Shown: piece after piece, positions 9,477 to 62,051 of the stretch
Layout: each line of letters begins with the position of its first letter
How positions within the stretch are numbered: position 1 is the stretch's first letter
NCBI RefSeq assembly: GCF_044324785.1
Contig: NZ_CP172127.1
Source: Escherichia coli
GTDB taxonomy: Bacteria > Pseudomonadota > Gammaproteobacteria > Enterobacterales > Enterobacteriaceae
Direction: 5' to 3' (one strand)
Length of the DNA stretch: 64,000 bases
Notes under the pieces: generated by a model
What the model saw: only the letters and a program-made list of their open reading frames with translations
What the model was told of the DNA's origin: nothing
The model's database searches: none
Translations under genes and position numbers: made by a program

Positions 9477-10565
9477 ATGCCTCACAATCCTATCCGCGTG
9501 GTCGTCGGCCCGGCTAACTACTTTTCACATCCAGGAAGTTTCAATCACCTGCATGATTTTTTCACTGATGAACAACTTTCTCGCGCGGTGTGGGTCTACG
9601 GCGAACGCGCCATTGCTGCGGCGCAAACCAAACTTCCGCCAGCGTTTGAACTGCCAGGGGCAAAGCATATTTTGTTTCGCGGTCATTGCAGCGAAAGCGA
9701 TGTACAGAAACTGGCGGCTGACTCCGGTGACGACCGCAGCGTGGTGATTGGCGTCGGCGGCGGCGCACTGCTCGACACCGCGAAAGCCCTCGCCCGCCGT
9801 CTCGGTCTGCCGTTTGTTGCCGTTCCGACGATCGCCGCTACCTGCGCCGCCTGGACACCGCTCTCTGTCTGGTATAACGATGCCGGACAGGCGCTGCATT
9901 ATGAGATTTTCGACGACGCCAATTTTATGGTGCTGGTGGAACCGGAGATTATCCTCAATGCGCCGCAAGAATATCTGCTGGCGGGGATCGGTGACACGCT
10001 GGCGAAATGGTATGAAGCGGTGGTGCTGGCCCCGCAACCAGAAACGTTGCCGTTAACCGTGCGCCTGGGGATTAATAACGCGCAGGCCATTCGCGACGTC
10101 TTGTTAAACAATAGCGAACAGGCGCTTGCCGATCAGCAAAATCAACAGTTAACGCAATCATTTTGCGATGTGGTGGATGCGATTATCGCCGGAGGTGGAA
10201 TGGTCGGTGGTCTGGGCGATCGTTTTACGCGTGTGGCGGCGGCCCATGCCGTGCATAACGGTCTGACCGTGCTGCCGCAAACCGAGAAGTTTCTTCACGG
10301 TACCAAAGTCGCCTACGGAATTCTGGTGCAAAGCGCCTTGCTGGGTCAGGATGATGTGCTGGCACAATTAACCGGGGCGTATCAGCGTTTTCATCTGCCG
10401 ACTACGCTGGCGGAGCTGGAAGTGGATATCAATAATCAGGCGGAGATCGACAAAGTGATTGCCCACACCTTACGTCCGGTGGAATCCATTCATTACCTGC
10501 CAGTCACGCTGACACCAGATACGTTACGTGCAGCGTTCGAAAAAGTGGAATCGTTTAAAGCCTGA
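9477..10565 (+). CDS. ybdH: Iron-containing alcohol/hydroxycarboxylate dehydrogenase YbdH (HcxA), 362 aa
   Basis: Full ORF; glycerol-dehydrogenase-like GGGxxxD region; recognised as YbdH. Confidence 0.9.
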   Translation: MPHNPIRVVVGPANYFSHPGSFNHLHDFFTDEQLSRAVWVYGERAIAAAQTKLPPAFELPGAKHILFRGHCSESDVQKLAADSGDDRSVVIGVGGGALLDTAKALARRLGLPFVAVPTIAATCAAWTPLSVWYNDAGQALHYEIFDDANFMVLVEPEIILNAPQEYLLAGIGDTLAKWYEAVVLAPQPETLPLTVRLGINNAQAIRDVLLNNSEQALADQQNQQLTQSFCDVVDAIIAGGGMVGGLGDRFTRVAAAHAVHNGLTVLPQTEKFLHGTKVAYGILVQSALLGQDDVLAQLTGAYQRFHLPTTLAELEVDINNQAEIDKVIAHTLRPVESIHYLPVTLTPDTLRAAFEKVESFKA

Positions 10566-10574
10566 CGTACATAT

Positions 10575-10772
10575 TTAGCAGCAGCGCGCGCCGCCTTTTC
10601 CACCGTAGCGCGCGTCCTGCCGCTCACGGAAAAACTCCTCGTAGGTCATCGGCGTTTGATCGGGATGGTTTACCCGCATATGTTCGACATAGTTGTCGTA
10701 ATCAGGCATACCAATCATCAGCTTCGCCGCCTGACCTAAATATTTTCCGGCTTTTGCCAGTGAATCAAACAT
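10575..10772 (-). CDS. ybdD: Small DUF466 protein YbdD, 65 aa
   Basis: [58 protein letters not shown]...; downstream of cstA as in K-12. Confidence 0.85.
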
Positions 10773-10834
10773 CAATACCTCCGGTAAACAGGTTGCTGAT
10801 AGAGTGCATTAATAGCTATCAACGCGCTCGGTCA

Positions 10835-10935
10835 GTCCCCTCGCCCCACCGGGGAGAGGGTTAGGGTGAGGGGGAACCCTCGGCACCATGCCAACTTTCG
10901 CCAACATTCGCCAACATTCCCCCCTCACTCTGACT
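10835..10935. repeat. GC-rich imperfect-palindrome element with tandem 'ttcgccaaca' direct repeat, in the cstA-ybdD spacer
   Basis: ccctcgccccaccggggagagggttagggtgaggggg contains nested inverted repeats; cgccaacattcgccaacatt direct repeat follows. Confidence 0.4.
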
Positions 10936-13041
10936 TTAGTGCGCGCCTTTCGCCTGCGCCACGATCTCCTCGACATTTTCCGGCATTGGCTCATACGGCG
11001 TTTCTTTCGCCGTTGGCTTCGGCTCTTTCAATGCCGCCAGTGCCGTCTTAATCGAGAACAGTGCCAGAACCACCACGACCACCATAAAGAAGATGGTTAA
11101 CCCGGCATCAAGACGGTTGTTGAACACCAGTTGCGCCAGTTGTGACTCAGTATACTGCGATGGAATATTGCCGCTGTCGATCATTGCCTGGAACTTGTTA
11201 GCAATCGCCAGGAAGCCGACTTTCGCATCCGGGCTAAACGCTTTCTGCCAGCCTGCGGTCAGGGTACAAATCAGCAGCCAGGCCGTTGGTACCAGCGCCA
11301 CCCAGGCGTAACGTTGACGTTTCATTTTGAACAGCACCACAGCACAGAGCATCAGCGCCATCCCTGCCAGCATCTGGTTGGCAATACCAAACAGCGGCCA
11401 CAAGGTGTTAATACCGCCCAGCGGATCGACCACACCCTGATGGAGGAAGTAGCCCCACGCCAGCACGCACAGCGCCGTTGCCAGCAGGTTAGCAGGCAGT
11501 GAATCGGTCCGCTTCAGGCCAGGAGACACCACGCCCAGCAGATCCTGCAACATAAAGCGCGCAGCACGCGTACCCGCATCTACCGCCGTCAGAATAAACA
11601 GAGCTTCAAACAGAATGGCGAAGTGATACCAGAACGCCACATCCATCATGCCGCCCAGCGCGCCGTGCAGAATGTAGGCCATCCCCACCGCCAGCGTCGG
11701 CGCACCGCCCGCACGGGAAATGATCGACTGTTCACCCACTTCGCTGGCAATCTGGTTGAGCGTATCTGGTGTAATGCTAAAGCCCCAGCTACTCACCACC
11801 TGCGCGGCAGAAGCGACTACATCCGCCGTCCCTGCAGGAGCCAGCACCGCCATCGGGCTGTTCATGGCGAAGTACACACCTGGATCGATGATACAGGCGG
11901 AAACCAGCGCCATAATCGCCACGAAGGATTCCATCAACATCCCACCGTAGCCGATAAAGCACGCCTGCCCTTCGTTCGCCAGCATCTTCGGCGTGGTGCC
12001 GGAAGAGATCAGCGCATGGAAGCCAGACACCGCGCCACAGGCGATGGTGATAAACAGGAACGGGAACAGGTTACCGGTCCATACCGGGCCAGTGCCATCG
12101 ACAAATTTAGTTAGCGCAGGCATGGTCAGCGTCGGGCGCATAATCAAAATGCCTACCGCCAGACCGACGATGGTCCCGATTTTCAGGAAGGTTGAGAGGT
12201 AGTCGCGCGGGGCCAGCAACAGCCACACCGGCAGCACCGCCGCCACAAAACCGTAACCCACCAGCATCCAGGTCAGCTGCACGCCGGTAAAGTCAAAGTA
12301 CGGTGCCCAGGTCGGACTTTCTGCCACCCAGCCGCCAGAGATAATGGCGAAAATCAGGAACACCAAACCGATGACCGACACTTCGCCAATACGCCCCGGA
12401 CGCAGATAGCGCAGGTAGATCCCCATAAACAGCGCCAGCGGAATAGTGAACGCAACGGTATACGTTCCCCACGGGCTATGAGTCAGGGCTTTCACCACGA
12501 TCATCGCCAGTACTGCAAGGATAATGACCATGATCATAAAGCAGGCCACCAGCGCTATCACCCCGGCGGTTGGCCCCATCTCTTCTTTGACCAGCTCACC
12601 CAGCGAGCGACCGTCACGGCGCGTAGAAACAAACAGCACCATGAAATCCTGCACCGCACCGGCGAGAACCACCCCGGCGAGCAGCCAGATCATCCCTGGC
12701 AGGTAACCCATTTGCGCCGCCAGTACCGGCCCCACCAGCGGGCCAGCTCCGGCAATGGCCGCAAAATGGTGACCGAACAGCACTTTCTTGTCCGTCGGCA
12801 CATAGTCCAGCCCGTCGTTATGGCGCACCGCGGGCGTCATACGCGTCGGGTCAACCGCCAGCACATTTTTGGCGATATACAGACCATAAAAACGGTAAGC
12901 GATCAGATAGATACAGACCGACGCCACCACAATCCACAGCGCATTGATCTGTTCCCCACGATTTAAAGCAATGTATCCCAGAGCAAATGCTCCCATTACA
13001 GAGAGCACTGTCCAGACGAGGTATTTCCCTGATTTGTTCAT
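10936..13041 (-). CDS. cstA: Carbon starvation protein A (pyruvate/peptide transporter), 701 aa
   Basis: Full ORF, polytopic membrane protein; MNKSGKYLVWTVLSVMGAFALGYIALNRGEQINALWIV... recognised. Confidence 0.96.
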   Translation of the reverse strand: MNKSGKYLVWTVLSVMGAFALGYIALNRGEQINALWIVVASVCIYLIAYRFYGLYIAKNVLAVDPTRMTPAVRHNDGLDYVPTDKKVLFGHHFAAIAGAGPLVGPVLAAQMGYLPGMIWLLAGVVLAGAVQDFMVLFVSTRRDGRSLGELVKEEMGPTAGVIALVACFMIMVIILAVLAMIVVKALTHSPWGTYTVAFTIPLALFMGIYLRYLRPGRIGEVSVIGLVFLIFAIISGGWVAESPTWAPYFDFTGVQLTWMLVGYGFVAAVLPVWLLLAPRDYLSTFLKIGTIVGLAVGILIMRPTLTMPALTKFVDGTGPVWTGNLFPFLFITIACGAVSGFHALISSGTTPKMLANEGQACFIGYGGMLMESFVAIMALVSACIIDPGVYFAMNSPMAVLAPAGTADVVASAAQVVSSWGFSITPDTLNQIASEVGEQSIISRAGGAPTLAVGMAYILHGALGGMMDVAFWYHFAILFEALFILTAVDAGTRAARFMLQDLLGVVSPGLKRTDSLPANLLATALCVLAWGYFLHQGVVDPLGGINTLWPLFGIANQMLAGMALMLCAVVLFKMKRQRYAWVALVPTAWLLICTLTAGWQKAFSPDAKVGFLAIANKFQAMIDSGNIPSQYTESQLAQLVFNNRLDAGLTIFFMVVVVVLALFSIKTALAALKEPKPTAKETPYEPMPENVEEIVAQAKGAH

Positions 13042-18050: not shown

Positions 18051-18078
18051 ATCATCCTCCACAAAATGATAAAGGCTT

Positions 18079-18097
18079 TAATAATGATTATCATTTA
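18079..18097. promoter_or_regulatory. Fur box in the divergent entC / fepB promoter region
   Basis: aataatgattatcatttat closely matches the Fur consensus GATAATGATAATCATTATC. Confidence 0.8.
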
Positions 18098-18238
18098 TAT
18101 TTTCGGTCGCTAACCTAAAAGCAAACGCGCACTATGTCAACTCTTGAGGTAACGCAATCTGCAACTCGGGGTTGCATCTGGTTGTGGTTACAATGAAAAT
18201 GAGAAGCATTAACTTCATTAATAACAGGAAGCTGATTT

Positions 18239-51461: not shown

Positions 51462-54400
51462 ATGAGTGAAGGACCAGGCGGGCCACAGGGAGCGACCGCA
51501 GGCGGTACGCTGGCAATGCGAATGCTGTCACAGCAGGCGATGGTCGCCAGCCAGATGAAACGGGCAGCCAACGACAAAGCCATTGCACAGATGTTGGCAT
51601 CAAAAAAGTCTGGCCCCCCCGCCGCCAGGCTGGGCGATGAAATTCAGCACAAGAGTTTTTTGGGGGCGCTGGCAGGGGCCGTGCTGGGGGCGATAGTGAC
51701 CATCGCAGAAGGTTGCCTGATTATCGCCGCCTGTGCCACCGGCCCTTATGCGCTGGTTCTGGTGCCTGCGCTGATGTATGCCAGCTATAAGGCGAGTGAT
51801 TATGTGGAGGAGAAACAGAACCAGCTTGAATCCTGGATAAACAGCTTTTGTGACAAGGACGGGGCCATCAATACTGGTTCTAAAAATGTAAACATTAACG
51901 GAAAGCCCGCTGCCAGGGCCGCCGTCACACTTCCCCCTCCTCCCCTGACTGAAGCAATACCCTCTCCACCACAGGGGGAACCTTCATGGGGGGATATTGC
52001 CACTGACCTGCTTGAATCGGCAGCGGAAAAAGCAGTGCCACTGGCGAAGGCCTGGGGGAACGCTGTTATCACCCTGACGGACAGCAATGCCAGTTTTATG
52101 GATCGCTTATGTGCAGGCACATCGCTTCTGTTTCCCTACGGCCCGGTATTAATGGAGTTTGCCACCATGGTGGGCGGGCGTGGCGAAATCAAAAAAGACG
52201 TGGATTTCCCGGAAGCCGGTGAAGACACGGCGCTCTGCGACAAGGAGACTAAACCGCCGAGGATAGCCCAGGGCAGCAGCAACGTCTTCATCAACAATCA
52301 GCCTGCCGCGCGCAAGGGCGACAAACTGGAGTGCAGCGCGGCAATCGTGGAAGGTTCGCCGGACGTCTTTATTGGGGGTGAGCAGGTCACCTATCTGGAT
52401 ATCCAGCCGGAGTTCCCGCCGTGGCAGAGAATGATCCTGGGGGGAATAACGATAGCCAGCTATCTTCTGCCGCCAGCGGGACTGCTGGGAAAAATGAAGA
52501 ATCTGGCGAGACTCGGCAAACTGGGAAACCTGCTGGGGAAAAGCGGGAAGCTGCTGGGCGCAAAACTCGGCGCATTGCTGAGCAGAACAAAAAATGCCCT
52601 GAAAAATACGTATAACGTCCTGAAAAAGTTTATCAAAGATCCGGTTGACCCGGTAACCGGCGCGTACTGCGACGAACGTACCGACTTCACCCTGGGCCAG
52701 ACCCTCCCCCTCTCCTTCACCCGTTTCCACAGTTCTGTACTGCCACTGCATGGCCTGACGGGCGTGGGCTGGAGCGACTCCTGGAGCGAATACGCCTGGG
52801 TGCGTGAACAGGGAAACCGGGTGGATATCATCAGCCAGGGAGCCACGCTGTACTTTGCCTTCGACGGAGACAGTGATACGGCGGTTAACCCGTATCACGC
52901 CCAGTATATCCTGCGCCGCCGCGACGATTACCTGGAGCTGTTCGACCGTGATGCCCTGAGCAGCCGCTTCTTTTATGACGCCTTTCCGGGAATGCGCCTG
53001 CGCCACCAGGTGACCGGCGATACCAATGATGACCGCCTGGCACACAGCCCCGGTGACCGGATGTACATGCTGGGCGGAATGAGTGACACCGCCAGCAACC
53101 GCATCACGTTTGAGCGCGACAGTCAGTACCGGATCACGGGTGTCAGTCACACCGACGGGATCCGGCTTAAACTGACGTACCACGCCAGCGGCTACCTGAA
53201 AGCCATTCACCGCACGGATAACGGCATACAGACGCTGGCGACCTACGAACAGGACGAACGGGGACGGCTGACAGAAGCGGATGCGCGGCTGGACTACCAC
53301 CTGTTTTATGAGTACGACGATGCGGACCGGATCATCCGCTGGTCCGATAACGACCAGACGTGGAGCCGTTTCACCTACGATGCACAGGGCCGGTGCGTGA
53401 CCGTCACCGGGGCGGAAGGCTATTACAACGCCACGCTGGACTATGGTGACGGCTGCACTTCCGTGACGGACGGCAAGGGCATTCACCGTTATTACTATGA
53501 TCCTGACGGCAATATCCTGCGGGAAGACGCGCCGGACGGCAGTACCACCACGTATGAATGGGATGAATTCCATCACCTGCTGGCCCGCCACTCCCCTGCC
53601 GGACGGGTGGAGAAATTTGAATACAACGCCGTACACGGTCAGTTAAGCCGTTACACGGCGGCAGACGGCGCGGTGTGGCAGTACCGCTATGATGAGCGCG
53701 GCCTGCTCAGCAACATCACCGACCCTGCCGGGCAGACGTGGACACAGCAGTGTGATGAACGCGGCCTGCCGGTAAGTCTGGTGTCGCCACAGGGCGAAGA
53801 GACCCGGCTGGCGTACACGCCACAGGGGCTGCTGTCGGGGATATTCCGCCAGGATGAACGGCGTCTGGGCATAGAGTACGACCACCACAACCGGCCGGAA
53901 ACACTCACCGACGTGATGGGCCGTGAACACCACACCGAATACAGCGGTCACGACCTGCCGGTGAAGATGCGCGGCCCCGGCGGTCAGTCAGTGCGGTTAC
54001 AGTGGCAGCAGCACCATAAACTGAGTGGCCTTGAGCGGGCAGGAACCGGCGCGGAAGGATTCCGCTACGACCGCCACGGCAACCTGCTGGCGTACACGGA
54101 CGGTAACGGCGTTGTCTGGACAATGGAATACGGCCCGTTCGATTTGCCGGTGGCGCGAACGGACGGTGAAGGCCACCGCTGGCAGTACCGCTACGATAAA
54201 GACACGCTGCAACTGACAGAAGTCATCAATCCGCAGGGTGAGTCATACCGTTATATTCTCGACAACTGTGGCCGGGTGACGGAAGAGCGTGACTGGGGCG
54301 GCGTGGTCTGGCGTTACCGCTATGACGCCGATGGCCTGTGTACCGCCAGGGTTAACGGCCTGGAGGAAACTATCCTCTACAGCCGGGACGCCGCAGGCCG

Positions 54401-56324
54401 CCTGGCAGAAGTCATCACCCCGGAAGGCAAAACGCAGTATGCGTATGACAAATCCGGCAGGCTGACGGGTATCTTCAGCCCGGACGGCACATCACAGCGC
54501 ACCGGCTACGACGAACGCGGGCGGGTGAATGTCACCACTCAGGGCAGACGGGCCATTGAGTACCACCACCCCGATGAACACACCGTTATCCGCTGTATCC
54601 TGCCACCGGAAGATGAACGCGACAGACACCCCGGTGAATCCCTGCTGAAAACCACCTACCGCTACAACGCCGCCGGAGAACTGACGGAGGTTATCCTGCC
54701 GGGGGATGAGACGCTGACGTTCAGCCGTGATGAGGCAGGACGTGAAGTGCTCCGGCACAGTAACCGGGGTTTTGCCTGTGAACAGGGCTGGAATGCAGCC
54801 GGTCAGCTTACCAGCCAGCGCGCCGGATTTTTCCCGGCGGAAGCCACATGGGGCGGACTGCTCCCCTCACTGGTGCGGGAGTACCGTTACGACAGCGCGG
54901 GCAATGTGTCGGCTGTCACCAGCCGGGAAGACTACGGACGGGAAACACGGCGGGAGTACCGGCTGGACCGGAACGGCCAGGTCACAACGGTGACAGCCTC
55001 AGGCACCGGGCTGGGCTATGGCGAAGGCGACGAGACTTATGGCTATGACAGCTGCGGCTACCTGAAGGCGCAGTCTGCGGGCAGGCACCGGATAAGTGAA
55101 GAGACTGACCAGTATGCCGGAGGCCACCGGCTGAAACAGGCCGGAAACACGCAGTATGACTATGACGCCGCAGGCCGGATGGTCAGCCGCACCAGACACC
55201 GTGACGGCTACCGCCCGGAAACAGAGCGGTTCCGGTGGGACAGCCGGGACCAGCTGACCGGGTATTGCAGCGCACAGGGGGAGCAGTGGGAATACCGCCA
55301 CGACGCCAGCGGCAGGCGGACGGAAAAACGCTGCGACCGGAAGAAAATCCGTTTTACGTACCTGTGGGACGGCGACAATATTGCGGAAATCCGGGAATAC
55401 CGCGATGATAAACTGTACAGCGTACGGCACCTGGTGTTTAACGGCTTTGAGCTGGTAAGCCAGCAGTGCAGCCGGGTACGGCAGGCGCATCCGTCCGTGG
55501 CCCCGCAGTGGGTGACGCGAACGAATTATGCGGTGAGCGACCTGACAGGCCGCCCGCTGATGCTCTTTAACAGTGAAGGTAAAACCGTCTGGCGGCCGGG
55601 ACAGACCAGCCTGTGGGGGCTGGCACTCAGCCTGCCCGCAGACACCGGCTACCCGGACCCGCGCGGGGAACTGGACCCGGAAGCCCCCCCCGGCCTGCTG
55701 TATGCGGGACAGTGGCAGGATACGGAATCGGGGCTGTGCTATAACCGGTTCCGGTATTACGAGCCGGAAACCGGAATGTACCTGGTGAGTGATCCGCTGG
55801 GGTTGCAGGGAGGTGAGCAGACTTACCGGTATGTGCCTAATCCTTGTGGGTATGTTGATCCGCTGGGGCTGGCAAAAACCAGTATTATAAAATCTTCTAC
55901 AGGCAAAATCCCACAAGGGTTAACAAAAAGCGAATTTGAGATTTTTTCAAAAAAATTAAAGGATGTATTAGCCCGAGAGGGAATCTCGACAGAGAATGTG
56001 TTTGTACATGGCAGTAGAGCCAGAGGAGATGCTGTATCAGGTGTTTCAGATATTGATATAAAAGTGATCCTTAGTGATAAAGATTTTGGTGCCTTTGCAG
56101 CAAGACGTATTGCTGAGTCCTCAGGAAGGACTCGAAATTTAATCAGGAAGGCCGTTGCTAAAAATCAAAAAATAAATTCAAGAGGAATTTCTAAAACTTT
56201 TGAATCTACTGTATGGGATGAGGTTTTCACTACCTTACCAAAAGGTGAGTTTTCAAGCATTCAAGTTTCTGTTATGACCAAAACTTCACCATTCAACACT
56301 AATCCGAGTATTATATTACCATGA
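51462..56324 (+). CDS. prePAAR/PAAR-domain Rhs effector with C-terminal polymorphic toxin domain, 1620 aa
   Basis: N-terminal AARLGDEIQH prePAAR motif and TM helices, split PAAR region, YD/Rhs repeats, PxxxxDPxGL-type demarcation (PNPCGYVDPLGL), then an AT-rich 150-aa C-terminal extension. Confidence 0.92.
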   Translation: MSEGPGGPQGATAGGTLAMRMLSQQAMVASQMKRAANDKAIAQMLASKKSGPPAARLGDEIQHKSFLGALAGAVLGAIVTIAEGCLIIAACATGPYALVLVPALMYASYKASDYVEEKQNQLESWINSFCDKDGAINTGSKNVNINGKPAARAAVTLPPPPLTEAIPSPPQGEPSWGDIATDLLESAAEKAVPLAKAWGNAVITLTDSNASFMDRLCAGTSLLFPYGPVLMEFATMVGGRGEIKKDVDFPEAGEDTALCDKETKPPRIAQGSSNVFINNQPAARKGDKLECSAAIVEGSPDVFIGGEQVTYLDIQPEFPPWQRMILGGITIASYLLPPAGLLGKMKNLARLGKLGNLLGKSGKLLGAKLGALLSRTKNALKNTYNVLKKFIKDPVDPVTGAYCDERTDFTLGQTLPLSFTRFHSSVLPLHGLTGVGWSDSWSEYAWVREQGNRVDIISQGATLYFAFDGDSDTAVNPYHAQYILRRRDDYLELFDRDALSSRFFYDAFPGMRLRHQVTGDTNDDRLAHSPGDRMYMLGGMSDTASNRITFERDSQYRITGVSHTDGIRLKLTYHASGYLKAIHRTDNGIQTLATYEQDERGRLTEADARLDYHLFYEYDDADRIIRWSDNDQTWSRFTYDAQGRCVTVTGAEGYYNATLDYGDGCTSVTDGKGIHRYYYDPDGNILREDAPDGSTTTYEWDEFHHLLARHSPAGRVEKFEYNAVHGQLSRYTAADGAVWQYRYDERGLLSNITDPAGQTWTQQCDERGLPVSLVSPQGEETRLAYTPQGLLSGIFRQDERRLGIEYDHHNRPETLTDVMGREHHTEYSGHDLPVKMRGPGGQSVRLQWQQHHKLSGLERAGTGAEGFRYDRHGNLLAYTDGNGVVWTMEYGPFDLPVARTDGEGHRWQYRYDKDTLQLTEVINPQGESYRYILDNCGRVTEERDWGGVVWRYRYDADGLCTARVNGLEETILYSRDAAGRLAEVITPEGKTQYAYDKSGRLTGIFSPDGTSQRTGYDERGRVNVTTQGRRAIEYHHPDEHTVIRCILPPEDERDRHPGESLLKTTYRYNAAGELTEVILPGDETLTFSRDEAGREVLRHSNRGFACEQGWNAAGQLTSQRAGFFPAEATWGGLLPSLVREYRYDSAGNVSAVTSREDYGRETRREYRLDRNGQVTTVTASGTGLGYGEGDETYGYDSCGYLKAQSAGRHRISEETDQYAGGHRLKQAGNTQYDYDAAGRMVSRTRHRDGYRPETERFRWDSRDQLTGYCSAQGEQWEYRHDASGRRTEKRCDRKKIRFTYLWDGDNIAEIREYRDDKLYSVRHLVFNGFELVSQQCSRVRQAHPSVAPQWVTRTNYAVSDLTGRPLMLFNSEGKTVWRPGQTSLWGLALSLPADTGYPDPRGELDPEAPPGLLYAGQWQDTESGLCYNRFRYYEPETGMYLVSDPLGLQGGEQTYRYVPNPCGYVDPLGLAKTSIIKSSTGKIPQGLTKSEFEIFSKKLKDVLAREGISTENVFVHGSRARGDAVSGVSDIDIKVILSDKDFGAFAARRIAESSGRTRNLIRKAVAKNQKINSRGISKTFESTVWDEVFTTLPKGEFSSIQVSVMTKTSPFNTNPSIILP
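55872..56321 (+). other. Rhs C-terminal toxin domain, candidate nucleotidyltransferase fold
   Basis: HGSRARGDAVSGVSDIDIKV matches the hG[GS]-x(9-13)-DhDh nucleotidyltransferase signature by eye; sharp drop in GC at the DPLGL boundary. Confidence 0.55.
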
Positions 56325-59284: not shown

Positions 59285-62051
59285 CTGTTTTTGCCAGTGG
59301 GACGAATACCATCACCTGCTGGCGAGGCTGTCTCCGGCAGGACGGCTGGAAAAGTTTGACTATCATCTGACACTCGGTCAGTTAAGCCGTTACACGGCGG
59401 CAGACGGCGCGGAGTGGCAGTACCGCTATGATGAGCGCGGCCTGCTCAGCAACATCACCGACCCTGCCGGGCAGACGTGGACACAGCAGTGCGATGAACG
59501 CGGCCTGCCGGTGAGTCTGGTGTCGCCACAGGGCGAAGAGACCCGGCTGGCGTACACCGCTCAGGGGCTGCTGTCGGGGATATTCCGCCAGGATGAACGG
59601 CGTCTGGGCATAGAGTACGACCACCACAACCGGCCGGAAACACTCACCGACGTGATGGGCCGTGAACACCACACCGAATACAGCGGTCACGACCTGCCGG
59701 TGAAGATGCGCGGCCCCGGCGGTCAGTCAGTGCGCTTACAGTGGCAGCAGCACCATAAACTGAGCGGCATTGAACGTGCTGGAACCGGCGCGGAAGGATT
59801 TCGCTATGACCGCCACGGCAACCTGCTGGCCTGGACGGACGGCAACGGTGTTGACTGGACAATGGAATACGGCCCGTTTGATTTGCCGGTGGCGCGAACG
59901 GACGGTGAAGGCCACCGCTGGCAGTACCGCTACGATAAAGACACGCTGCAACTGACAGAAGTCATCAATCCGCAGGGCGAGTCATACCGTTATATTCTCG
60001 ACAACTGTGGGCGGGTGACGGAAGAGCATGACTGGGGCGGCGTGGTCTGGCGTTACCGCTATGACGCCGATGGTCTGTGTACCGCCAGGGTTAACGGCCT
60101 GGAGGAAACCATCCTCTACAGCCGGGACGCCGCAGGCCGCCTGGCAGAAGTCATCACCCCGGAAGGGAAAACGCAGTATGCGTATGACAAATCCGGCAGG
60201 CTGACGGGTATCTTCAGCCCGGACGGCACATCACAGCGCACCGGCTACGACGAACGCGGGCGGGTGAATGTCACCACTCAGGGCCGACGGGCCATTGAAT
60301 ACCACCACCCCGATGAACACACCGTCATCCGCTGTATCCTGCCACCGGAAGATGAACGCGACAGACACCCCGGTGAATCCCTGCTGAAAACCACCTACCG
60401 CTACAACGCCGCCGGAGAACTGACGGAGGTTATCCTGCCGGGGGATGAGACGCTGACGTTCAGCCGTGATGAGGCAGGACGTGAAGTGCTCCGGCACAGT
60501 AACCGGGGTTTTGCCTGTGAACAGGGCTGGAATGCAGCCGGTCAGCTTACCAGCCAGCGCGCCGGATTTTTCCCGGCGGAAGCCACATGGGGCGGACTGC
60601 TCCCCTCACTGGTGCGGGAGTACCGTTACGACAGCGCGGGCAATGTGTCGGCTGTCACCAGCCGGGAAGACTACGGACGGGAAACACGGCGGGAGTACCG
60701 GCTGGACCGGAACGGCCAGGTCACAACGGTGACAGCCTCAGGCACCGGGCTGGGCTATGGCGAAGGCGACGAGACTTATGGCTATGACAGCTGCGGCTAC
60801 CTGAAGGCGCAGTCTGCGGGCAGGCACCGGATAAGTGAAGAGACTGACCAGTATGCCGGAGGCCACCGGCTGAAACAGGCCGGAAACACGCAGTATGACT
60901 ATGACGCCGCAGGCCGGATGGTCAGCCGCACCAGACACCGTGACGGCTACCGCCCGGAAACAGAGCGGTTCCGGTGGGACAGCCGGGACCAGCTGACCGG
61001 GTATTGCAGCGCACAGGGGGAGCAGTGGGAATACCGCCACGACGCCAGCGGCAGGCGGACGGAAAAACGCTGCGACCGGAAGAAAATCCGTTTTACGTAC
61101 CTGTGGGACGGCGACAATATTGCGGAAATCCGGGAATACCGCGATGATAAACTGTACAGCGTACGGCACCTGGTGTTTAACGGCTTTGAGCTGGTAAGCC
61201 AGCAGTGCAGCCGGGTACGGCAGGCGCATCCGTCCGTGGCCCCGCAGTGGGTGACGCGAACGAATTATGCGGTGAGCGACCTGACAGGCCGCCCGCTGAT
61301 GCTCTTTAACAGTGAAGGTAAAACCGTCTGGCGGCCGGGACAGACCAGCCTGTGGGGGCTGGCACTCAGCCTGCCCGCAGACACCGACTACCCGGACCCG
61401 CGCGGGGAGCTGGACCCGGAAGCCGACCCCGGCCTGCTGTATGCAGGACAGTGGCAGGATACGGAATCAGGGCTGTGCTATAACCGGTTCCGGTACTACG
61501 AGCCGGAAACCGGAATGTACCTGGTGAGTGATCCGCTGGGGTTGCAGGGGGGTGAGCAGACTTACCGGTATGTGCCGAATCCTTTAAGATATAAAGATTT
61601 CTATGGGCTTAGTAAGAGTTCAATAATAACGAGAGGAAAGAATGCTGGTCATGGCTATGCAGCCAGCGTTACACCTGGAGGCAAAGGTACGGTGTTGGCT
61701 GGTCACGGAGGATCAAAATTTGGCGATAAAATGATTATACCAGAAGGCGTATCGATAACGATGCCGAGAGATGGTATTAAAATATCAGATATGACTGGAA
61801 AATTACTGGAATCTGGTAATGTGGATGATATAATTAAAGCTGCAAGTAATAATCCTCGTGTAGCTAGCGATCTTGAAGGTTGGGTTACTTATTTGCCCGG
61901 CACTGAAATCCCTGATTATATTTTAAAACCACCCACCAATCTTAACATACTGGAAAATTCAGTAACGGTGAACACTTCAACTTATTTATCTCAAATGGTA
62001 AATGCTGGTCAAGGTAATGTAATCTGGGCTGCATGCACCGAATTTTTTTAA
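59285..62051 (+). CDS. Orphan rhs C-terminal cassette (Rhs core repeats plus alternative toxin domain); no canonical ATG, first in-frame start is GTG at 59511
   Basis: Near-identical to the main rhs from about aa 700 onward, then diverges at a degenerate PNPLRYKDFYGL motif into a distinct roughly 147-aa AT-rich C-terminus. Confidence 0.8.

Follow-up and report, generated by a model that had tools for sequence, protein, structure and literature searches.

The spacer between cstA and ybdD in the Escherichia coli DNA under study contains a GC-rich palindrome followed by short direct repeats, and the question raised by this locus is whether these sequences represent a member of an intergenic repeat family, an RNA structure which affects the expression of ybdD, or a protein binding site, all of which had been put forward in the original prediction. 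The two flanking genes encode partners in pyruvate uptake, in which CstA and YbdD act together, the ybdD product being needed for CstA-dependent uptake (PMC5847655), and a CstA-YbdD complex is predicted. Within the window, by which is meant the entire 64-kb stretch of DNA that was analysed, cstA (positions 10936-13041, minus strand) is located upstream of ybdD (positions 10575-10772, minus strand), and the same gene calls are present in the RefSeq annotation of the identical locus of strain 19KM1831. The spacer and its principal landmarks are as follows:

10773-10935, minus strand: cstA-ybdD intercistronic spacer of 163 nt, bounded by the cstA stop codon and the ybdD ATG
10936-10938, minus strand: cstA stop codon TAA
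10778-10782, minus strand: ybdD Shine-Dalgarno sequence GGAGG, separated by 5 nt from the ATG (10770-10772)
10796-10835, no strand assigned: AT-centred palindrome CTGATAGAGTGCATTAATAGCTATCAACGCGCTCGGTCAG, a 22-nt palindrome found by repeat search and folding, which forms stem-loop III

As both genes are encoded on the minus strand, their mRNA carries the C-rich strand of the repeat element described below, the G-rich strand of which represents the template strand of cstA and ybdD. A literature search for transcript mapping of cstA-ybdD returned nothing relevant, Hwang 2018 being silent on operon structure.

The BoxC copy and its repeat family

The palindromic string ccctcgccccaccggggagagggttagggtgaggggg, at positions 10838-10874, can be decomposed into the blocks CCCTCGCCC-CACCG-GGGAGAGGG-TTA-GGGTGAGGG-GG, from which the following features were derived:

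10838-10872, plus strand: strict TMECO/BoxC core CCCTCGCCC-CACCG-GGGAGAGGG-TTA-GGGTGAGGG, located with a regular expression for the consensus
10824-10886, plus strand: extended BoxC unit with weakly conserved tails (left, GCGCTCGGTCAGTC; right, GGGGAACCCTCGGCAC), delimited by paralog alignment
10838-10860, no strand assigned: internal BoxC palindrome, in the mRNA CCCUCUCCCC-GGU-GGGGCGAGGG, which forms stem-loop II

The core is an exact fit to the expression CCCTCNCCCN3-6GGGNGAGGGN3GGGNGAGGG, of which it is the sole strict match in the window, the TMECO consensus of Holder et al. (2015) being 5'-CCCTCNCCC N3-6 GGGNGAGGG N3 GGGNGAGGG-3' (PMC4666352). With its second loop TTA and a single mismatched position between CCCTCGCCC and GGGAGAGGG, the copy belongs to type A mm, the commonest TMECO subtype (PMC4666352). 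The core also includes, at positions 10852-10872, the HPG1 21-mer GGGAGAGGGTTAGGGTGAGGG, which is preceded by a C-rich block at 10838-10846, in keeping with the C-rich region approximately 3 nt upstream by which the HPG1 group is recognized. The window copy thus resembles the BoxC/PIT/TMECO/HPG1 family in its consensus, TTA loop, 21-mer, tails and intergenic, multicopy nature, and differs from it in its first loop, CACCG, where CTTTG or CTCTG is usual.

That the palindromic feature is non-random follows from two results. An exact 23-mer, GGGGAGAGGGTTAGGGTGAGGGG, at positions 10851-10873, is unique in the window, with zero matches expected from window shuffles, and the mRNA-sense spacer, when folded, yields three stem-loops with a free energy of -75.9 kcal/mol (z = -4.68; none of 200 shuffles as stable). 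The nested inverted repeats named in the original prediction are indeed present, three in number; they include the pairs 10837-10846/10864-10873 (10 nt, 90%) and 10860-10874/10920-10934 (15 nt, 87%).

Alignment of 10 type-A paralogs revealed a core of approximately 36 nt which is near-perfectly common to all, flanked by more weakly conserved tails (left, G.GC.CGg.C.GTC; right, GGGGaAC...gca); the resulting extended unit of approximately 60 bp is in line with the published 50-56 bp. An nhmmer profile built from BoxC copies matched the window only at positions 10793-10917 (E = 3e-27), and strict and fuzzy regular expressions, together with this profile, identified no further BoxC copies in the 64-kb window. 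A GC-rich hairpin at positions 317-339, CCCTCGCCGCCTGACGGTGAGGG, resembles the first two BoxC blocks, with two mismatches to the half-motif. A search of Rfam 15 at a permissive E-value produced chance-level matches only (25 bits for mir-423, the threshold of which is 71, and 21 for Antizyme_FSE, the threshold of which is 40).

The repeat has been described four times under different names: the BoxC of the 1990s was followed by the PIT elements of 2000-2002, by TMECO in 2015 and by HPG1 in 2016. Holder et al. equate their TMECO motif both with BoxC and with the PIT ("potential intrastrand triplex") element that Hoyne and Maher described (PMC4666352). BoxC figures in Cozzuto et al. among the known stem-loop families of E. 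coli, with a length of 50-56 bp and 22-32 copies (PMC2267715), and Table 1 of Kaplan et al. (2016) includes the K-12 cstA>>>ybdD copy as HPGQ no. 19 (PMC5100583). Neither the repeat family nor the K-12 copy at this locus is, therefore, new to the literature. The last block of the K-12 copy, GGGTGAGAGGG, carries a G-to-A change which is not shared by the intact window copy, and it is because of this change that the K-12 copy is absent from the 23 strict TMECOs of Holder et al.; in the supplements to that 2015 study the cstA-ybdD locus is not named by gene.

A blastn search with the spacer as query detected BoxC-like places in 5388 of 5426 complete E. coli genomes, with a median of 12-13 (approximately 13 copies) and a maximum of 23 per genome. 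The intergenic copies retrieved included those of zntA-tusA, gntP-fimH, tauD-hemB, adk-hemH, fabI, aaeR-tldD, frlR-yhfS, pstB-pstA, yjdP-phnP and fepB-entC. On the basis of these sequence comparisons, the spacer is shown to harbor one copy of the dispersed enterobacterial repeat BoxC/PIT/TMECO/HPG1, and the first of the proposed identities, that of an intergenic repeat family member, is thus borne out by consensus match, copy number and precedent. The element is real but ordinary, and as a discovery it matters little.

REP/BIME elements are likewise dispersed, GC-rich, palindromic intergenic repeats, and the cstA-ybdD spacer of K-12, of an ST38 strain and of outgroup Escherichia contains a REP; the BoxC sequence is, however, unrelated to REP. 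No match to the REP consensus (a GCCGGATGCGGCG...CGCCTTATCCGGC-like palindrome) was found within four substitutions in the window spacer, and we know of no RayT/TnpAREP-type mobilization for BoxC.

An older hairpin and the alleles of E. coli

The BoxC copy was shown to be fused to an older, Escherichia-wide stem-loop which directly follows the cstA stop codon. This stem-loop I is composed of the following elements:

10920-10934, no strand assigned: one arm of stem-loop I, CCCCCTCACTCTGAC, which begins 2 nt past the cstA stop codon
10890-10919, no strand assigned: tandem 10-bp repeat with units GCCAACTTTC, GCCAACATTC and GCCAACATTC, located in the loop of stem-loop I
10860-10874, no strand assigned: second arm of stem-loop I, provided by the third BoxC block, GTTAGGGTGAGGGGG, at the position of the ancestral arm GCTGAGAGTAAGGGG

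The arm at 10920-10934 is conserved across all Escherichia alleles examined. In alleles which carry BoxC, the older hairpin retains its 5' arm and its loop, while its 3' arm now comes from the last block of BoxC (CCCCCUCACCC in the mRNA), so that in the window copy, as distinct from other members of the family, this block doubles as the arm of a locus-specific hairpin. The spacers of E. albertii, E. whittamii, Escherichia sp. MOD1-EC7003 and E. coli SCPM-O-B-8794 contain no BoxC; in these four, a stem-loop 2 nt past the stop codon (AGUCAGAGUGAGGGGG ... CCCCUYACUCUCAGC) is followed by a REP, a layout shared by the ST38 strain.

The direct repeat had originally been described as two copies of cgccaacatt. 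Two such units are present at positions 10899-10918, and the array comprises three 10-bp units in all. Its position in the loop of the older hairpin is occupied by a single GUUGGC in both E. whittamii and ST38. The 10-mer was also considered as a part of BoxC, a possibility which was rejected given that a single unit occurs in BoxC-free ST38 and that the repeat is absent from BoxC paralogs; the array is a product of local slippage within the loop of that hairpin.

Comparison of the spacer between E. coli strains revealed lengths of 163 nt (window), 153, 143 and 141 nt, 182 nt (K-12), 127 nt (ST38 strain) and 112 nt (Nissle and another strain), these alleles varying in the presence of BoxC, the presence of a REP and the number of 10-mers. 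Among otherwise alignable alleles, there are three 10-mer units in the window, two in K-12 and 980-2, one in ST38 and none in Nissle. A junction-spanning query (positions 10814-10896) was compared with the 5426 complete E. coli genomes, among which 4239 (78%) carry BoxC with both unique flanks in this spacer; at least 80% of the exact window allele was recovered by blastn from only 290 of the 5426. BoxC is missing from the spacer in B2 strains (Nissle, for example), in strain 2020N21-110 and in a strain of ST38. Where the spacers of K-12, ST38 and outgroup Escherichia carry a REP, the window has the AT-centred palindrome of stem-loop III instead, and the K-12 allele differs from that of the window by a 29-nt REP insertion which the latter lacks, which suggests that loss of the REP left another hairpin in its place.

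The Nissle allele, compared with positions 10814-10836 of the window, possesses a BoxC-type left tail, GCTATCAACACGCTCGG, without the core, and this tail is joined directly to the ancestral hairpin arm GCTGAGAGTAAGGGG; this implies that secondary loss, recombination or both have occurred. The altered last block of K-12 has TGAGAG in common with the same ancestral arm. The haplotypes on either side are mosaic as well. On sequence comparison, the alleles have the appearance of recombinant mosaics. Given the absence of BoxC at this position from outgroup Escherichia and from approximately 22% of E. coli, the most parsimonious account of the eight alleles would be that BoxC was gained within E. 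coli, recombination or loss subsequently producing the allelic mosaic. The E. coli BoxC appears to have been copied in beside a pre-existing arm which already resembled its own last block (CCCCTCAC); this likeness might, on a reading which we regard as doubtful, mean that BoxC spreads through homology-guided copying and not by transposition. Microhomology-guided insertion as a general rule finds no support at the second polymorphic site, fepB-entC, where the empty site is without BoxC-like sequence.

The latter locus lies within the window: the entC-fepB spacer (positions 18063-18238) measures 176 nt, compared to 374 nt in K-12, and is without the K-12 insert of approximately 190 bp which carries an inverted BoxC pair (type A and type B). 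This insert is present in 2721 of the 5426 complete E. coli genomes, and other paired BoxC loci match approximately 130-140 nt of it at 83-87%, from which it would seem that the BoxC pair behaves as a composite repeat unit.

The existence of at least seven structural alleles in E. coli (112, 127, 141, 143, 153, 163 and 182 nt) could alternatively be ascribed to BoxC acting as an instability hotspot which, without any role in expression, promotes indels, slippage and recombination. Such a property would be in agreement with the finding of Holder et al. that TMECO loci are more variable than control loci (PMC4666352) and with the presence or absence of the neighboring fepB-entC BoxC pair between strains. 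The 10-mer, however, varies in the loop of the older hairpin also where BoxC is lacking (one unit in ST38 and none in Nissle), such that BoxC is not needed for this variation, while REP gain and loss is common at any REP site. Instability is, moreover, compatible with the explanation favored here, in which BoxC is an occupant superimposed on an older hairpin, and as an explanation in its own right it is considered unlikely.

Whatever its origin, the locus constitutes a natural allelic series ahead of ybdD, in which BoxC and REP are each either present or absent and the number of 10-mers ranges from zero to three. It would, therefore, be convenient for testing the effects of BoxC on expression or genome stability, a question which is now 30 years old.

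The hairpin position in other genera

A scan for YbdD with one genome per species returned 80 loci, in 77 of which cstA is directly upstream of ybdD, the other three being too short to show cstA. Statistics on the spacer were compiled for the 76 with a full-length match to the CstA C terminus. In 73 of these 76 enterobacterial species the spacer is 47-195 nt in length, which is long enough for a predicted GC-rich structure, whereas in three species it is reduced to 14-20 nt and has no hairpin. Sixty-four of the 76 spacers fold with z < -2, the median being -0.43 kcal/mol per nt.

The nature of the structure differs between genera, and the following counts include some spacers which fall into two classes. 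Simple CCCTCNCC-loop-GGNGAGGG hairpins were found in 20 of the 76 spacers (Citrobacter, Salmonella and Kosakonia), REP-like sequences in 19 (Enterobacter, Leclercia, Lelliottia and Escherichia), BoxC-like sequences, either single or as inverted pairs, in 15 (among them E. asburiae, E. hormaechei, Leclercia, Lelliottia, Pseudocitrobacter, Cedecea, Pluralibacter and Phytobacter), and a hairpin with a U-tract in nine. In K-12, the paralogous btsT-yjiX spacer, of 49 nt, carries the GC hairpin AGCCCCGC-UUCG-GCGGGGCU followed by UUUGUUCUU, which, from its sequence, looks like an intrinsic terminator or attenuator.

Most BoxC copies in the spacers of other genera place the G-rich strand in the mRNA, which is the opposite of the situation in E. 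coli. In six spacers of Enterobacter, Lelliottia, Leclercia and Pluralibacter, the BoxC, with its G-rich strand in the mRNA, ends approximately 20 nt before the ybdD start codon, such that, unlike in E. coli, an RNA G-quadruplex beside the ribosome-binding site is possible in these genera.

The recurrence of structure at this position invites a broader proposal, which is advanced tentatively and which we regard as doubtful: that the junction between genes for CstA-family transporters and their small DUF466 partners, in cstA-ybdD as in the paralogous btsT-yjiX, is a conserved hairpin slot whose occupant has been replaced repeatedly, BoxC having been recruited to it under selection for structure. 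If so, its occupants would comprise simple CCCTCNCC hairpins, REPs, single or paired BoxCs and true terminators, and selection would act on an RNA 3'-end or attenuator structure which sets the ratio of transporter to small subunit. A slot with changing occupants would represent a modest new observation, namely that repeats settle where structure is already tolerated or needed.

RNA structure and the proposed role of the spacer

The suggestion that an RNA structure might affect ybdD expression is sustained in part. The spacer is predicted to fold very stably, its counterparts across Enterobacteriaceae are mostly long enough for a predicted GC-rich structure, and a generic effect is plausible, but a contribution specific to BoxC is not apparent. 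The predicted probability that the ybdD Shine-Dalgarno sequence is unpaired is 0.32 with BoxC (window) and 0.33 without (ST38) on the same UTR haplotype, and 0.64 in K-12 compared to 0.62 in Nissle; occlusion of the ybdD ribosome-binding site by BoxC was, therefore, rejected in silico. In the one functional study, that of Hoyne and Maher (2002) as cited by Holder et al., PIT elements acted neither as promoters nor as terminators and left RNA polymerase unaffected (PMC4666352). This reported inactivity, together with the lack of a U-tract or promoter pattern and the approximately 22% of strains in which the spacer lacks BoxC, argues against a BoxC-specific role.

The same considerations bear on the possibility that the spacer contains an intrinsic terminator of cstA and a separate promoter for ybdD. 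In its favor, cstA and ybdD, the co-transcription of which was taken as given in the original prediction, are each listed as a single-gene unit in Table 1 of Kaplan et al., which draws on RegulonDB data (PMC5100583), a very stable hairpin begins 2 nt past the cstA stop codon, and in some genera a hairpin with a U-tract occupies the position. The stable stem-loop directly after the upstream gene is a feature which the spacer has in common with intercistronic hairpins and terminators of operons in general; the U-tract of btsT-yjiX and of several genera is, however, lacking from the window spacer. A scan of both strands between positions 10400 and 11200, the spacer and the last 265 nt of cstA included, detected neither a terminator-like site (hairpin plus T-run) nor a sigma-70-like promoter. 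Strict synteny and the short spacers (47-63 nt) of most genera fit an operon, and the cited account of PIT elements denies them terminator activity. Termination coupled to a dedicated ybdD promoter is consequently viewed as highly improbable.

A further alternative is that the G-rich template strand folds into a triplex or G-quadruplex and thereby modulates read-through from cstA into ybdD, in the manner of the G-quadruplex-hairpin-duplex switch of Kaplan et al. As the mRNA carries the C-rich strand, an RNA G-quadruplex is impossible here, and any such triplex or G-quadruplex would be formed by DNA on the template strand. All four G tracts on that strand are intact in the window copy, and near-identical oligonucleotides, which differ only in loop 1, form triplexes as determined by NMR and CD (Tm 70-82 C; PMC4666352), while ion-dependent CD changes of near-identical oligonucleotides have been read as a G-quadruplex/hairpin switch (PMC5100583). 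In vivo DMS footprinting was, on the other hand, not supportive of a stable triplex, and addition of the complementary strand resulted in a duplex (PMC4666352). The copies show no orientation bias relative to genes (PMC4666352), the orientation in the same spacer of other genera is reversed, the last tract of K-12 is interrupted by the G-to-A change, and neither the strains without BoxC nor the cited lack of effect of PIT elements on RNA polymerase, promoters and terminators is readily reconciled with a switch, which we consider very unlikely.

Binding of a regulatory or nucleoid protein, the remaining identity offered by the original prediction, found no support. The core of approximately 36 nt is highly conserved among copies, as might be expected of a binding site, and REP/BIME elements bind gyrase and IHF. 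Kaplan et al., however, matched no known transcription factor motif to the family (PMC5100583), the genes which flank BoxC copies have no common function (PMC4666352), and no binding partner is reported in the BoxC/TMECO/HPG1 literature examined. A protein site is accordingly judged to be exceedingly improbable.

The reading that we prefer, and hold to be probable, is that of a BoxC copy seated on an older hairpin with a slippage repeat in its loop, the hairpin having a generic function and BoxC being a neutral occupant. What would count at this position is that the gene for the transporter and that for its small partner are separated by some stable, GC-rich RNA hairpin, which may protect the 3' end of cstA or partly attenuate read-through into ybdD, much as a REP would. 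REPs reportedly stabilize upstream mRNA (a finding attributed to Newbury et al., 1987) and are said to attenuate transcription (attributed to Espeli et al., 2001). We infer that the generic intercistronic hairpin is the relevant feature, with a putative stabilizer or attenuator role, and that the BoxC in the spacer is itself most likely a neutral or selfish occupant, interchangeable with others at the hairpin position.

Elsewhere in the window, a direct duplication of approximately 2.2 kb was observed between positions 53600-55800 and 59340-61540 (offset, 5739 nt), with 86-97% identity in 100-nt windows. As the reading frame of the duplication contains YD/Rhs-type repeats (YRYNAAGELTEV and YRYDSAGNVSAV), the duplicated segments are probably parts of an Rhs core.
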